Origin: Campylobacterota bacterium
GTDB taxonomy: Bacteria; Campylobacterota; Campylobacteria; Campylobacterales; Sulfurimonadaceae
Reading direction: 5' to 3'
Assembly (NCBI GenBank): GCA_034717975.1
Contig: JAYEMF010000120.1
Coordinates: forward strand, 1-32,987
Length of the DNA: 32,987 nucleotides
The position numbers and the translations under genes are program-made. Shown piece by piece: positions 1 through 9,857 of the stretch (position 1 is the first letter of the stretch; each line of letters begins with the position of its first letter). The notes below the pieces were generated by a model. That model had not been told where the DNA came from. It saw only the letters and a program-made list of their open reading frames with translations, and searched no databases.

Positions 1-773
1 TCCCAATATGTATGTTGCAGAGCTATATTCCCCCAATCATCCTTGTATCCAATAGCAAGAAGTGCAGAGGTGTTGTCAAAGTTCGTATATGGCAGTTCAC
101 CTGAAAAACGTGGTTTATCTCCAGCCGGATCCCCAGGCTCCCAAGTATCAGCATCTGGCGTTTTAAAATTATCTGCTTTTCTTTTTACAACTGCTGCGTT
201 TACACCAAGACTTCCCTGTGCCGCTTTGACCTTTACGCCGCCCATCTTTTCACTGTTATTCGTATGGTATTCACCTACTACTTCTCCCTCTACTCTGCTC
301 TCTCCCTCTTTTGCGTAGACAAATTCAGGGGAGAGAACATTTACAATTCCTCCAAGTGCATCTGAACCATAAAGCACTCCTTGTGCTCCACGAACCACCT
401 CGATTCTATCAGCGATAAAAGGGTCTGTATTGAGTATATGACGTATTCCATATGTTTGTGAGTCTGTAGCGACACCATTTGAGAGAACTTTTACACGTTC
501 ACCACTCATACCACGTACAACAGGTTTTCCCGCTTGTGGTCCTGTTTCGATATTATTGACACCTGAAAACTCTTCAAGAACTGCACCAAGTGATGCAGTC
601 GCCTTAAGAGTTTTGTCGTTTTTTTCAAGAATATCAACTTGATTTGGGCTCTCAAATACATCATATTGATTAATAGGAGAAGCCGAGATGCTGATTGCAT
701 CTACCTGATAGTGTGTTGTATCATTAGCCACTAGCATTGTTGCAGCCAGTGAAGATAGTAATAGTTTTTGCAT
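1..773 (-). CDS. TonB-dependent outer-membrane receptor, 5' part (signal peptide, plug, start of barrel); runs off the window
   Basis: Translated by hand; absent from the track. ATG at 773 with AGGA upstream, frame open to position 1. MQKLLLSSLAATMLVA...GPQAGKPVVRGMSGERVKVLSNG...DRIEVVRGAQGVLYGSDALGGIVNV is a classic TBDR plug motif. Confidence 0.93.
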   Translation of the reverse strand, partial: MQKLLLSSLAATMLVANDTTHYQVDAISISASPINQYDVFESPNQVDILEKNDKTLKATASLGAVLEEFSGVNNIETGPQAGKPVVRGMSGERVKVLSNGVATDSQTYGIRHILNTDPFIADRIEVVRGAQGVLYGSDALGGIVNVLSPEFVYAKEGESRVEGEVVGEYHTNNSEKMGGVKVKAAQGSLGVNAAVVKRKADNFKTPDADTWEPGDPAGDKPRFSGELPYTNFDNTSALLAIGYKDDWGNIALQHTYW

Positions 774-833
774 TAATATATCCTAGTTTTTTGTAATTTT
801 ATAGTGAGCTTAAATAATTAAAAAAGAGTAGGT

Positions 834-1115
834 TTATGGTGGTGAGCGGTTCTTAAGAGATATATGTACTAAGTGATACAGAGTATTAGAAGATGCATCA
901 AAAGCTTCAAAGTGGCTCTCTGTAAATGTGAGTGACAATATCTCACTCAATACCCCTGGAATATGTGCTACAAGACATACTTCACATGTATCATCATGGC
1001 AGTGCTCATGACTCAACTCATGTGCTACCCCCAAAAATATAGAAAGGATAAACAGTAATGTAAAGAATTTTCTTACTACATATACTCTTTTTTTCTGTTG
1101 CACTTTTCTATACAC
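834..1115 (-). CDS. DUF2946/CruR-like His-rich CxxC leader protein with C-terminal RSPP (putative regulatory uORF)
   Basis: Basic N-terminus, hydrophobic helix, then HELSHEHCHDDTCEVC, ending KNRSPP-stop. Lies 60 nt upstream of the TBDR on the same strand. The start could be GTG 1115 or GTG 1103. Confidence 0.75.
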   Translation of the reverse strand: MYRKVQQKKRVYVVRKFFTLLFILSIFLGVAHELSHEHCHDDTCEVCLVAHIPGVLSEILSLTFTESHFEAFDASSNTLYHLVHISLKNRSPP

Positions 1116-1154: not shown

Positions 1155-1169
1155 ATTTTATCAACTTAA
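1155..1169 (-). promoter_or_regulatory. Putative sigma70 extended -10 promoter for uORF-TBDR
   Basis: Minus strand TTAAGTTGATAAAAT (TGnTAAAAT with TTAAG upstream), the typical Campylobacterota form. Confidence 0.55.
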
Positions 1170-1278: not shown

Positions 1279-2052
1279 ATGGCCAGATCGCCACGTATCG
1301 ACCTTGCCGGTTATCATCATGTTGTCAATCGTGGTGTAGAAAAACGTAAAATCTACATAGATAGGGAAGATTATGAAACGTTTCTTGAGCTGTTGTGTAG
1401 CGTATCGTTTCAGTTTGATGTGACATTGCATAGTTATTGCTTAATGAGCAATCATTACCATCTATTGATAGAAACGCATCAGGAAAACCTTTCTAAAGCG
1501 ATGCGTGCTGTTAATGCCGGGTATGCCGCTTATTTTAATCGAAAATATAAACGGGTGGGCCATCTCTGGCAAGGAAGGTTCAAATCATGGTTTGTCACAG
1601 ATGAAGCCTACCTTTATACACTCATCAAATATATAGAGTTTAATCCGGTTAAGGCCAAAATCGTTAAAAATCTTGATGATTATGCTTACAGTTCTTATGC
1701 TGCATTCTCAGAAACCACTGAACCCATAGCCTGTTTGCATGACTCCATTATGTTTACACAGTTTTCAATGCTCAAAGACAGAGTCGGGTTTTTTGAGAAC
1801 TGGTATGATGAAGATGTTTTGAAAGAGATCAGGAAATCGTCAAGACTGGTAGTCAGCTCTGTGAAAACTCAAAAACTTTCTCTCAAACCATTGCGTACGT
1901 TATTTAAAGATTATGTCGACAAAAACGAAAGAAACAGGAAGATTGTAAAGGCAGTTGAGCTTGGCTACTCTCAACATATGATTGCAAACGTGCTTGGTAT
2001 GACACAGGGGAGTGTTAGCCATGTTATGAAAAAGCATAAACGAACAGAGTGA
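1279..2052 (+). CDS. REP-associated tyrosine transposase (RAYT / Y1_Tnp HUH nuclease) with C-terminal HTH
   Basis: MARSPR..YHHVVNRG, YCLMSNHYHLL (HUH), GHLWQGRFKS, YIEFNPV (catalytic Tyr), YSSY; C-terminal HTH GYSQHMIANVLGMTQGSVSH. Confidence 0.88.
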   Translation: MARSPRIDLAGYHHVVNRGVEKRKIYIDREDYETFLELLCSVSFQFDVTLHSYCLMSNHYHLLIETHQENLSKAMRAVNAGYAAYFNRKYKRVGHLWQGRFKSWFVTDEAYLYTLIKYIEFNPVKAKIVKNLDDYAYSSYAAFSETTEPIACLHDSIMFTQFSMLKDRVGFFENWYDEDVLKEIRKSSRLVVSSVKTQKLSLKPLRTLFKDYVDKNERNRKIVKAVELGYSQHMIANVLGMTQGSVSHVMKKHKRTE

Positions 2053-2128: not shown

Positions 2129-2347
2129 TTATCGGTTAAGTTTGTACCCTTCTCCTTTTTTCTCTTCCATAACCGTAAGGGAATGAAGCAAAGCTTCACG
2201 TTTCGTATCAAAATACTCCCTGACCCCTTTGCGTATACAGGTACGCTTGCCGCACTGATAGATCAGGAAAAAGTCATCAAACAGTGTTGGGTAGATGGTG
2301 ATGGAGTAGTAGTCGGTTCGTTGATTCCGTTCTCGGATGAGGGTCAT
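2129..2347 (-). CDS. Small WGR-domain-like protein (degenerate motif)
   Basis: YYSITIYPTLFDDFFLIYQCGK...EALL...KKGEGY follows the WGR pattern with WGR replaced by CGK. ATG 2347 preferred over TTG 2383. Confidence 0.6.
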   Translation of the reverse strand: MTLIRERNQRTDYYSITIYPTLFDDFFLIYQCGKRTCIRKGVREYFDTKREALLHSLTVMEEKKGEGYKLNR

Positions 2348-2408
2348 GCTCACTCTTTTATCTTGATGACAATTTTCCAGCAAGAACTATTCCGCTAAAA
2401 TAATCGTT

Positions 2409-5130: not shown

Positions 5131-6714
5131 ATGAATCAAGTAGATTTTGCAGATCTTGGTATCGAAAACGTTGGTGCGCTCTATCACAATCTAAGTTATG
5201 ATGAACTGATTGATCATGAATTGAAAAATGGTGAGTGTAAACTGGCCAGCAATGGTGCGACAGCTGTCGATACCGGTATCTTTACGGGTAGAAGCCCGAA
5301 AGATAAATATTTTGTGAACCAGGGTCCTTCAAATAACTATATTGCCTGGGGTGATATCAATCAGAAGATCGATAAAGCTCTCTTTGATGAACTGCTGGAT
5401 GTTGCACGCAAGCAGCTTTCAGACAGTGATCTATATGTAACCGATCTTTTCTGCGGTGCCAGTGAAGCAAGTAAACGTTCGGTACGTTTTGTTTCTCAGA
5501 TCGCATGGCAGTCTCACTTTGTCAAAAATATGTTTATTCGTCCGACATCAACGGAGCTTCAAACATTTAAACCTGAGTTTACAGTCTTGAACGCATGTAA
5601 GGCAGTGAACGATAAGTGGAAAGAACACGGACTTAACTCAGAAGTGTTTGTCCTCTTTAATGTAGAAGAGAATATCGCGATCATTGGCGGTACCTGGTAT
5701 GGTGGAGAGATGAAAAAAGGTATCTTCTCCATGATGAACTACTGGTTGCCGTTGGAAAACAAACTCGCTATGCACTGTTCGGCCAATGTCGGATGTGATG
5801 GTGATACTGCACTTTTCTTTGGTCTGAGCGGAACAGGTAAGACGACACTCTCTACAGATCCTAATCGCCGTTTGATTGGTGATGATGAGCATGGTTGGGA
5901 TGATGAGGGTGTCTTTAACTTTGAGGGCGGTTGTTACGCCAAAGTCATCAACCTCGATCCAAAAAGCGAACCAGAGATCTATGGTGCGATCAAGCGTAAT
6001 GCTCTTTTGGAAAATGTTGTGATGGATCAAGACGGCAATATTGATTACGAAGATGGAGGTAAGACAGAAAATACACGTGTCTCCTACCCGATTGAGCATA
6101 TTGTCAATCATGAGCCATCCCTTCATGCAGGACACCCAAAAAACATCATCTTCCTCTCAGCAGATGCCTTTGGTGTTTTGCCTCCGGTCAGTAAACTTAC
6201 TAGAGAGCAGGCAATGTATTATTTTTTAAGTGGTTACACGGCCAAAGTTGCGGGTACAGAGCGCGGAGTCACTGAACCGGTCGCGACATTCAGTGCATGC
6301 TTCGGAGAGGCATTTTTGCCACTGCATCCGACAGTCTATGCCAAACTGCTTGGAGAGAAGATCGATGAGTATGGCGTAAATGTTTATTTGGTAAACACTG
6401 GTTGGACTGGTGGTGCTTACGGGGTCGGTAAACGTATGAGCATTAAAGATACCCGTGCCTGCATCAATGCGATTCTTGATGGTTCGATCAATGAGAGTGA
6501 GTTTAGAACGACAAAAACATTTCATTTGAGTGTTCCAAATACGTTGGGAGATCTTGATCCTCATGTACTCTTCCCGCGCGAAGCCTGGGACGACAAAGAA
6601 GCGTTCGATGAAGCACGCGATAAACTGGGACAGATGTTTATTGACAACTTCAAAAAGTATCAGACGGAAGAGAACGAATTCGACTACTCTGAAGCTGGTC
6701 CGAAACTTCCATAA
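5131..6714 (+). CDS. pckA: Phosphoenolpyruvate carboxykinase (ATP)
   Basis: [48 protein letters not shown]. Confidence 0.98.
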
Positions 6715-9083: not shown

Positions 9084-9857
9084 CTACTCCAGATTGATGC
9101 CAAATAACCCAAAAAGCAGGCCTGATGCAATCAAATAAATCCCAAACGGTGTAAAACTATAGCGTGAAACGATTGCCAGAAATCCTTTGACAGCAATCCA
9201 TCCGACGACAAATGAGACGATAAAACCGATAGCAAGAAGTTCAAAATGTTCAAAGGAGAGCGCATGAAACTCTTTGAGAAGGACATAGCCAGACGCTGCA
9301 CCCATCGTTGGAATGGCAAGCAGAAATGAAAAACTCATGGCTATATCACGTTTAAGCCCAACAAGCATGGCTCCAAGAATGGTTGTTCCGGAGCGTGAAA
9401 TACCCGGAACCAGAGCAAGCGTCTGAAAAAAACCGATGTATAGCGCTTGTTTGATAGAGACATTATCCAAATCGCCAATATGATGTTCACGCTCTTTATA
9501 AAAGAATTCGATGGCCAAAAAAGCGATACCGGTGAGGACCATCAGGGCGACAGTCGAATTGGCAGAGAACATCGCTTCGATCTGCTTATGGAACAGAAAA
9601 CCGACAGCACCGGTAGGGATAAAGGCGATGATGAGTTTCATCCAGAGAGATTTGCTCTGCAGCAGACGCTCCCGGTAGATCAGCATGACTGAAAAGATCG
9701 GGGCAATCTGGATGATGATCTCATAAGCTGTCATAAATTCGGTCTGTTCGAGTCCCAACATCTTACCGGTGAGAAAAAGATGGGCCGTTGAAGAGACCGG
9801 AAGATATTCCGTGATTCCTTCGACAATGCCTAAAATAATGGAGTCAAATATAGTCAT
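9084..9857 (-). CDS. uppP: Undecaprenyl-diphosphate phosphatase
   Basis: GIVEGITEYLPVSSTAH, PGISRSG, FSFLLAIP; start ATG 9857. Confidence 0.96.
   Translation of the reverse strand: MTIFDSIILGIVEGITEYLPVSSTAHLFLTGKMLGLEQTEFMTAYEIIIQIAPIFSVMLIYRERLLQSKSLWMKLIIAFIPTGAVGFLFHKQIEAMFSANSTVALMVLTGIAFLAIEFFYKEREHHIGDLDNVSIKQALYIGFFQTLALVPGISRSGTTILGAMLVGLKRDIAMSFSFLLAIPTMGAASGYVLLKEFHALSFEHFELLAIGFIVSFVVGWIAVKGFLAIVSRYSFTPFGIYLIASGLLFGLFGINLE

Follow-up and report, generated by a model that had tools for sequence, protein, structure and literature searches.

The two tested systems that most resemble the one described here are CruR and CutF, and it is for copper only, in these two cases, that the papers cited here report tests of metal-sensing arrest peptides. 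CruR (BP2923, a DUF2946 protein) is encoded before the TonB-dependent transporter BfrG in Bordetella pertussis (PMC9426467) and carries a CxxC motif 45 ± 1-2 residues ahead of a C-terminal RAPP, a spacing that matters; arrest at RAPP has been demonstrated in vitro (PMC12992588), and the output is Rho-dependent termination (PMC9426467). The subject here is a short open reading frame (ORF), called the leader below, on a stretch of 32,987 nucleotides from a Campylobacterota bacterium (GenBank assembly GCA_034717975.1, contig JAYEMF010000120.1; "the window" denotes the whole of this stretch), where it directly precedes a gene for a TonB-dependent receptor (TBDR). All features of the leader and receptor lie on the minus strand, the initial annotation of the locus having given no strand.

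CutF, encoded before CutO in Rhodobacter capsulatus (bioRxiv 2022.11.11.516240 / PMC9973294; bioRxiv 2025.02.05.636593), is an exported nascent sensor with a Pro-rich stall, in which a stem-loop shielding the downstream ribosome-binding site (RBS) is melted by the stalled ribosome; it stalls when copper is present, and so induces a detoxifying oxidase. The CutF paper also lists His-rich variants, for which it suggests metals other than copper (bioRxiv 2022.11.11.516240). More broadly, a survey (PMC12992588) describes a class of small secreted proteins with a C-terminal RxPP, encoded upstream of TBDRs across Gram-negative bacteria; since the survey is limited to RAPP and RGPP, members with RSPP would be missed, and RSPP is itself reported there to be partially arrest-permissive in ApdA/ApdP mutants. 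Given these RAPP/RGPP leaders and the His-rich CutF variants, the general kind of leader must be regarded as already known. In the open-access literature searched, the general class was found, with no zinc-sensing example, none with RSPP or from Campylobacterota, and no conserved anti-RBS stem for the class (neither a zinc link nor an RBS stem was seen in the available parts of PMC12992588); these three points, namely the RSPP subfamily of Campylobacterota, the link to zinc and the anti-RBS stem, are what appears to be new here. According to the CruR paper, no zinc or copper riboswitch is known (PMC9426467).

Set beside CruR, the window leader shares the position of first gene before a TBDR, an export signal, a CxxC at a fixed distance ahead of a C-terminal RxPP, and the expectation that metal shuts uptake off. 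It differs in length (89 aa against 145), in motif (RSPP against RAPP), in the distance from CxxC to the Arg (42 residues against 45) and in the spacer before the receptor gene (60 nt against 162), as well as in having a His cluster, a score below the Pfam cut-off for DUF2946, a ZnuD-like rather than a copper context, and a predicted anti-RBS stem where CruR has a demonstrated rut site. With CutF it shares the features of an exported nascent sensor and a Pro-rich putative stall motif, together with a predicted stem over the downstream RBS that is clear in many relatives and weak in the window, but the presumed metal site is CxxC/His instead of CxxxC, and because the target is an importer where that of CutF is a detoxifying oxidase, the opposite sign of regulation is predicted.

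On balance, and with slightly more confidence than doubt, the leader is read here as an arrest peptide that is exported while being translated and acts in cis, controlling the receptor gene downstream by hiding the RBS of that gene, with zinc as the likeliest signal. The parts of this reading do not all stand equally firm: it is very probable that the ORF is an arrest-type regulatory leader and probable that it confers metal-released repression on an uptake receptor, while RBS occlusion is reasonably likely as the main output in the family (less so for the window copy) and zinc has about an even chance of being the main signal. Stalling, sign of regulation and metal are proposed by analogy with CruR, CutF and the class of PMC12992588. 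The geometry and the stems have been computed, and in most relatives the mRNA at a ribosome stalled on RxPP can pair with the receptor RBS. Where metal is scarce, the ribosome would stall at RSPP, its footprint keeping the anti-RBS arm open, and perhaps also blocking Rho, so that the receptor is translated; where metal (most likely Zn(II)) is plentiful, it would bind at the His/CxxC site, which at about 45 residues from the stall point would have just left the tunnel or reached the translocon, and the folding or pulling that results would free the stall, whereupon the stem would hide the RBS and turn uptake off, possibly with Rho termination afterwards.

The leader (Table 1) consists of a basic N-region, a hydrophobic stretch FFTLLFILSIFLGVA, the sequence HELSHEHCHDDTCEVC and the motif RSPP, after which TAA follows immediately; every part listed in the initial annotation was thus found, at 834-1103 or, in a longer version of 93 aa that begins at GTG 1115, at 834-1115. 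The start at GTG 1103 is preceded by AGGTG at a distance of 9 nt and agrees better with where homologues begin; the export or transmembrane (TM) segment was called from sequence and hydropathy. Pfam and NCBIfam assigned no family to the window leader, and a search of the database with this single sequence gave no match at all. A three-sequence profile, made from the leaders of the window and of two related Campylobacterota loci (L001 and L002), was therefore used, and this found 25 homologues, which range over 82-126 aa but mostly have 85 aa (seven are on a contig whose length equals that of a receptor match, one is L002 itself, and seven lie on contigs shorter than 2.5 kb). In the resulting alignment nine residues are invariant in all 27 rows (S, F, H28, C40, C43, H47, R86, P88 and P89), among them the first His, both Cys and the last His of the His/Cys stretch, which across the family contains 4-6 His and almost no Met. 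The motif is RSPP in 26 rows and RAPP in one, and the CxxC-to-R distance is 42 in 26 rows and 41 in one, even though the linker between the two varies freely. The window leader has all nine of these residues and conforms at 22 of the 26 columns that are well conserved, and its mean identity to the family is 43% (family range 37-52%; fifth lowest of 27). The leader is therefore a real, constrained and conserved gene, and on the aligned sequences RSPP is the conserved motif of its Campylobacterota subfamily.

The initial annotation had taken the leader for an epsilonproteobacterial version of the DUF2946-type uORFs CruR and CutF. Its export segment, Cys/His site and RxPP at fixed spacing do fit that kind, but the assignment to DUF2946 does not survive the search against PF11162 (gathering cut-off 23.7), in which the window protein had no match and L001 and L002 scored 17 bits; 19 of the 27 family members match at E<=1, with a best E of 0.0016. 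A wider profile search of 50% representatives gave 51 proteins, only one of which, the distant P0186, passes the cut-off (27.3). By these scores the RSPP subfamily lies under the DUF2946 cut-off and is not a Pfam member; its CxxC-to-R distance of 42 also falls outside the 45 ± 1-2 of CruR. Among 73 distinct database relatives the motif is RSPP in 37, RAPP in 27, RDPP in 5, RGPP in 1, RYPP in 1 and absent in 2 (RxPP was not scored for P0162 and P0174). As a measure of background, 14 of 2888 control ORFs (60-200 aa) have R[AGS]PP at the C-terminus, and several of the 14 are such leaders themselves. A tblastn search of plasmids with a leader homologue gave no match.

Two further groups of small proteins of unknown function encoded beside uptake genes, ZrgD (DUF2607; PMC9817125) and the Leptospira LIC10965 family (NF047702), look alike at the level of features and give weak cross-matches between hidden Markov models; for instance, the leader of locus L024 scores 82 bits against NF047702, below its cut-off. 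The available descriptions do not present them as arrest peptides, and homology to the leader is a lead only, but on their sequence features the DUF2607 and LIC10965-family proteins may be arrest peptides that have gone unrecognised. LIC10965 and LIC10964 are both induced in a host-mimicking condition (PMC3953431).

How consistently leader and receptor occur together was assessed in a genome scan with a 33-sequence receptor alignment, from which the best 80 of 604 stretches were kept; these represent 77 loci, only three of them from Campylobacterota, and two of those three (L001 and L002) have clear orthologues of the leader. A script called a leader at 55 of the 77 loci, and inspection, which dropped one spurious call (L011) and added L042 and L060, brought this to 56. 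At all 56 the leader is directly upstream of the receptor (55 have R[AGS]PP and one LPPP; two are cut by contig ends), while at L025 and L050 it lies one or two genes further upstream, heading the operon, and 19 of the 77 receptor loci are leaderless. CxxC is present in 37 leaders, in every one of which the spacing from CxxC to R is 41-47; most of the other leaders have a single Cys among His. The conservation of CxxC and RxPP, which had been put forward as a check, is borne out in the family alignment (27/27 rows), while at the 56 loci ahead of receptor genes R[AGS]PP is kept in 55 leaders and CxxC in 37. The idea of an epsilonproteobacterial variant holds in so far as RSPP is the conserved motif (26 of 27 rows) of the Campylobacterota subfamily, but not for the architecture, the class being in print (PMC12992588) and the arrangement, in many cases richer in His, being seen here in Bacteroidota, Gemmatimonadota, Rhodothermota, Spirochaetota, Elusimicrobiota, Thiomicrospira-like Gammaproteobacteria and others; the RGPP/RAPP relatives from Bacteroidota are probably within the lists of PMC12992588. 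Many of the 77 loci are from related Flavobacteriaceae and are hence not independent.

Some individual loci merit a brief mention. In L001 (2806-5873) cydA, cydB and a small membrane protein gene run straight into the leader, and since the small gene overlaps the leader start, the leader may share a transcript with the cytochrome bd genes. L078 (5924-6379), on the Salinibacter ruber plasmid pSR116, has an unannotated 151-aa CxxC...RGPP leader preceding the receptor, with DsrE and a zinc transporter downstream, and L020 (minus strand, ~3849 on the reverse complement) has a second CxxC...RAPP leader-like ORF away from the receptor that was searched for. No leader was evident at L079, where a distant plasmid receptor adjoins a transcriptional repressor gene. 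At L054 (~9690-9800) a distant, leaderless receptor lies among cobalamin genes, and an element resembling, by eye, a cobalamin riboswitch is upstream of it.

Turning to the receptor, its gene starts at ATG 773 after a spacer of exactly 60 nt, as the initial annotation had it, and the 257 aa visible before the window edge include a Pfam Plug domain (E 6.7e-19). Close relatives are ~705 aa long; those close matches that carry a name are from Campylobacterota, and the window receptor groups with the Campylobacterota loci (FastTree support 99, with the window row filling 35% of the columns). The resemblance to ZnuD-type receptors noted earlier was upheld by both sequence and fold. In the Protein Data Bank (PDB) the top match is ZnuD of Neisseria meningitidis (PDB 4RDR/4RDT; PMC4557270), whether searched by profile (E 2e-47; next 3e-32) or by single sequence, and ZnuD is again the top fold match (Z 39.4, root-mean-square deviation 2.2, 589 aligned) of an AlphaFold model of P0001, a full-length relative 81% identical to the window receptor (pLDDT 86.6). 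The zinc ligands of ZnuD are Asp99, His100, Glu340 and His499 (PMC4557270), and both of the His positions are kept: His100 and His499 align with H111 and H474 of the receptor, invariant in 33/33 sequences, and across the loci the plug His is retained in 71 of 77, with Asp or Glu just before it in 53 of 77. Identity to ZnuD is, all the same, only ~20%.

It is largely from such context that zinc, on sequence comparison, is favoured as the signal metal of the leader. At L036 the leader and receptor come after the remnant of a fur-family gene, znuA, a gene for an ABC ATPase and znuB; at L078 leader and receptor are followed by the zinc transporter mentioned above; and at L011 a cobW/COG0523 gene adjoins the receptor. 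Among 117 neighbour proteins scanned from selected loci, none is a copper-handling protein. The palindrome TGCAAC-N3-GTTGCA, a predicted Zur box of Desulfovibrio (PMC545781), occurs 12 times at <=1 mismatch in 1.22 Mb, eight times in promoter regions of receptor operons (L007, L036, L057, twice in L061 and three times in L066) and four times elsewhere. L007, from Sulfurovum and in the same Campylobacterota receptor clade as the window (support 99), has the box but no leader; its palindrome (5884-5915, ~50 nt before the receptor start) overlaps a second inverted repeat, and folE is directly downstream. The leaderless loci L061 (9309-9760) and L066 (9335-9880) have divergent Fur-family genes, with two and three copies respectively between that gene and the receptor, and here the palindrome is likely, from its placement, to be a Zur-type operator of Bacteroidota. 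None of the 12 lies in the window, where the best match near the leader or in its spacer has 5 mismatches. A search of the ESM Atlas with the window leader (837-1103) gave, from this one source, look-alikes in a cluster labelled "ABC-type zinc uptake system zinc chaperone" (0.93), in DUF2607 (0.92) and in DUF2946; DUF2607 is the ZrgD protein of a Zur-repressed zinc-uptake operon of Vibrio (PMC9817125). The suggestion that the metal is something other than copper thus gains independent support from the ZnuD-like receptor, the zinc genes and the Zur-type boxes, with zinc the most likely candidate.

The strongest competitor, unlikely but to be taken seriously, keeps the arrest-peptide sensor and changes its signal or cargo to haem or iron, nickel or cobalt, a metal chelate, or copper. 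Several observations do count in this direction and against zinc. The full-length relative P0001 has its best NCBIfam score against the haem receptor family TIGR01785 (173 bits), slightly above that against the ZnuD family NF038289 (149 bits), both far under cut-off (950 for NF038289); ChuA (Z 36.9) and OprC (Z 35.4) follow close behind ZnuD in the fold search; the position of ZnuD Asp99 is Arg in the receptor subclade of the window (18 of 77 loci); and Glu340 has no clear counterpart, in a region that aligns poorly. The barrel also has a FRAP...H...NPxL pattern of the kind seen in haem receptors. As to neighbours, cydAB is directly upstream of the leader in L001, while in L002 it lies 2.5 kb downstream, ccmE/F lie near L024, and in Leptospira the gene numbered next to LIC10965, LIC10964, is annotated as a haemin receptor (PMC3953431), the L024 leader being the one that resembles the LIC10965 family. 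His-only CutF-like proteins occur before the nickel/cobalt genes HupE/UreJ (bioRxiv 2022.11.11.516240), and both of the tested models of the family sense copper. The zinc evidence has limits of its own, in that the L036 receptor is a long-branch outlier, box and leader do not significantly exclude each other (3/19 against 2/53, Fisher p=0.11), the box was assigned to Zur by a prediction made in another phylum, for which PMC3878776 and PMC8000910 gave no support in Bacteroidota or Campylobacterota, and the Campylobacterota DNA context comes from just three loci among the best 80 of 604 stretches. On the other side, a likeness to haem receptors is found in ZnuD too (PMC4557270), relatives repeatedly have zinc-uptake genes and Zur-type boxes close by, and copper in particular is disfavoured by the lack of copper-handling proteins among the 117 neighbours scanned, by a score of just 54 bits against the copper receptor family TIGR01778, and by a leader site rich in His and poor in Met.

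How the leader would act on the receptor gene behind it was approached at the level of RNA, by calculating how much energy it takes to make the receptor RBS (-15 to +3) accessible when a 32-nt footprint covers the presumed stall site and when it does not, and comparing the gain with that for dinucleotide shuffles of the upstream part (40 in one run, 20 in another). The test took 42 of the 56 leader loci, leaving out 11 with an unclear start or a frameshift, L036 because of its length, and L042 and L060. In 25 of the 42 the gain exceeded that of every shuffle (8 of 14 outside Bacteroidota), and the median gain was 3.7 kcal/mol; it was 9.6 for L001 and 5.5 for L002, the two Campylobacterota loci with a leader, and 5.3 for L013, in all three of which long stems connect the last leader codons and the stop to the Shine-Dalgarno (SD) sequence. 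An anti-RBS stem in 25 of 42 loci makes translational control of the CutF/SecM type at least as likely as Rho termination, and points to RBS hiding as the output in the family. There are qualifications: the other 17 loci did not exceed their shuffles, many of those that did are from related Flavobacteriaceae, and the window has a weak stem (a gain of 1.5 kcal/mol with p=0.27, rising to 2.0-2.8 at 25-15 °C), consisting of a 4-bp CCUA/UAGG pairing at the place homologous to the stems of relatives; its competitor is a 7-bp arm that lies further upstream, on the 5' border of the assumed footprint. Covariation of the 4-bp anti-SD helix (four sequences) was not significant (28/500 shuffles), and a misalignment of L013 may be the source of its "compensatory" cells. 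An Rfam scan of 600-2500 found no RNA family, and hence no known riboswitch.

A second and less likely possibility, on the whole an improbable one, is that the same metal-released arrest peptide works as CruR does, through Rho termination in a C-rich region at the stop, with the hairpin secondary. CruR is the obvious precedent (PMC9426467), and the window region is nearly unstructured (minimum free energy -3.5 kcal/mol). With the RSPP codons masked, C minus G over the 60 nt to either side is +11, a value that none of the window's 28 other gene ends attains (maximum +9), and C exceeds G around the leader end in 48 of 52 loci, the window included. The skew of the spacer, pointed out in the initial annotation, was counted correctly, but 9 C against 3 G is weak by itself (binomial p=0.073); likewise only 26 of the 52 loci reach the top 5% of their own receptor-gene background, and Pro/Ser codons and the anti-SD arm would also make the region C-rich. 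Rho has, moreover, no need of the long, position-fixed anti-RBS stems of L001, L002, L013, L028 and others, and the Campylobacterota spacers of 45-70 nt are far shorter than the 162 nt of CruR.

RBS hiding by an arrest peptide may hold for the family without holding for the window copy, which could be decaying within a functional family, leaving the receptor roughly constitutive and possibly transcribed from a promoter in the spacer; this seems quite improbable. One feature that invites it, and that tells against an intact switch here, is that the window leader alone has its stop directly after PP, whereas in the 73 database relatives a tail of 2-8 residues follows the motif in all 71 that bear RxPP; judging by the DNA alignment, what was once the stop has seemingly become TAC and an earlier codon TAA. 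To this may be added the weak anti-RBS stem, an insertion of six residues in the N-region relative to homologues, and an IS200-like transposase gene starting ~160 nt upstream of the leader on the opposite strand. As for the spacer promoter raised in the initial annotation, TAAAAT is indeed present at 801-796, 22 nt ahead of the receptor ATG, and is seen in L001 as well, but TAnAAT arises in 34% of spacer shuffles, so that the hexamer is at chance level, and in L001 it is part of the 3' arm of the stem. The nine invariant residues and 22 conserved columns, the open frame, the exact spacing and an identity inside the family range all argue for function, and a stop after PP would presumably leave the P-site/A-site stall intact. 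With the invariant residues all kept, the window copy is best read as intact, its stop position possibly retuning the response.

That the leader product is a small metal chaperone acting in trans in the periplasm, as its export signal, His/Cys site and Atlas cluster name might suggest, is highly improbable, given an RxPP that is invariant close to the C-terminus and keeps its distance from CxxC across a freely varying linker, a position always directly upstream on the same strand, the avoidance of RxPP in proteomes (PMC12992588), and the precedent of CutF, itself first taken for a chaperone (PMC9426467, discussion).

If the arrest-peptide reading with zinc as signal is right, a zinc-responsive leader would extend bacterial zinc homeostasis by a post-transcriptional layer and give a function to many unannotated genes of 85-130 aa, and the uniform subfamily (~85 aa, spacing 42) would be a clean substrate for finding out how metal binding outside the tunnel frees an RxPP stall. 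More tentatively, and with rather more doubt than confidence, one may picture a zinc-sensing switch that crosses phyla, in which His/Cys-RxPP leaders control ZnuD-like importers by stall-dependent RBS unmasking, whether in place of Zur or on top of it, with ZrgD/DUF2607 and LIC10965-type proteins perhaps among its members and the Campylobacterota subfamily providing a natural RSPP arrest peptide.

Table 1 Features of the leader-receptor locus in window coordinates, all on the minus strand.
Feature	Position	Strand	Details
ZnuD-like TBDR gene, 5' part	3..773	-	Signal peptide, plug, barrel start; cut by window edge
Leader-receptor spacer	774..833	-	60 nt, 9 C, 3 G
Receptor Shine-Dalgarno UAGGA	781..785	-	From sequence
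TAAAAT, possible internal -10 in spacer	796..801	-	No TG extension; 22 nt before receptor ATG; also in L001
CCUA, anti-Shine-Dalgarno arm	829..832	-	Just past stop; weak here (pair probability 0.39); extended in L001, L002
Leader ORF (uORF)	834..1103	-	89 aa from GTG 1103; TAA at 836-834
RSPP, putative arrest motif	837..848	-	42 residues past CxxC; abuts stop
AUAUAUC, second possible anti-RBS arm, in uORF	859..865	-	Pairs with GAUAUAU at receptor RBS; probability 0.69 at 37 °C
His/Cys cluster H-E-L-S-H-E-H-C-H-D-D-T-C-E-V-C-L-V-A-H	963..1022	-	Putative metal site; CxxC at 975-986
Hydrophobic export/TM segment	1023..1067	-	15 residues behind basic N-region; from sequence and conserved F/L/S/F alignment columns
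TGATAAAAT, candidate extended -10 for leader-receptor transcript	1155..1163	-	Sole TGnTAnAAT on minus strand, 700-1400

The candidate promoter for the leader-receptor transcript in Table 1 was picked out by the extended -10 consensus; a generic sigma-70 scan gave 4 sites where 3.8 are expected, and found no terminator. Divergent from the leader lies the gene (1279-2052, plus strand) for the IS200-like (Y1_Tnp) transposase, which has a C-terminal helix-turn-helix, and next after it a WGR-domain ORF (2129-2383, minus strand). The rest of the window (5131-32874) holds ordinary core genes, including those for PEP carboxykinase, an MFS protein, Ham1 and BacA, a hisZ-like gene, purA, fliJ and carA, a cbb3 oxidase cluster, a pair encoding a PD-(D/E)XK nuclease and a UvrD-like helicase, rplM/rpsI and a por operon.

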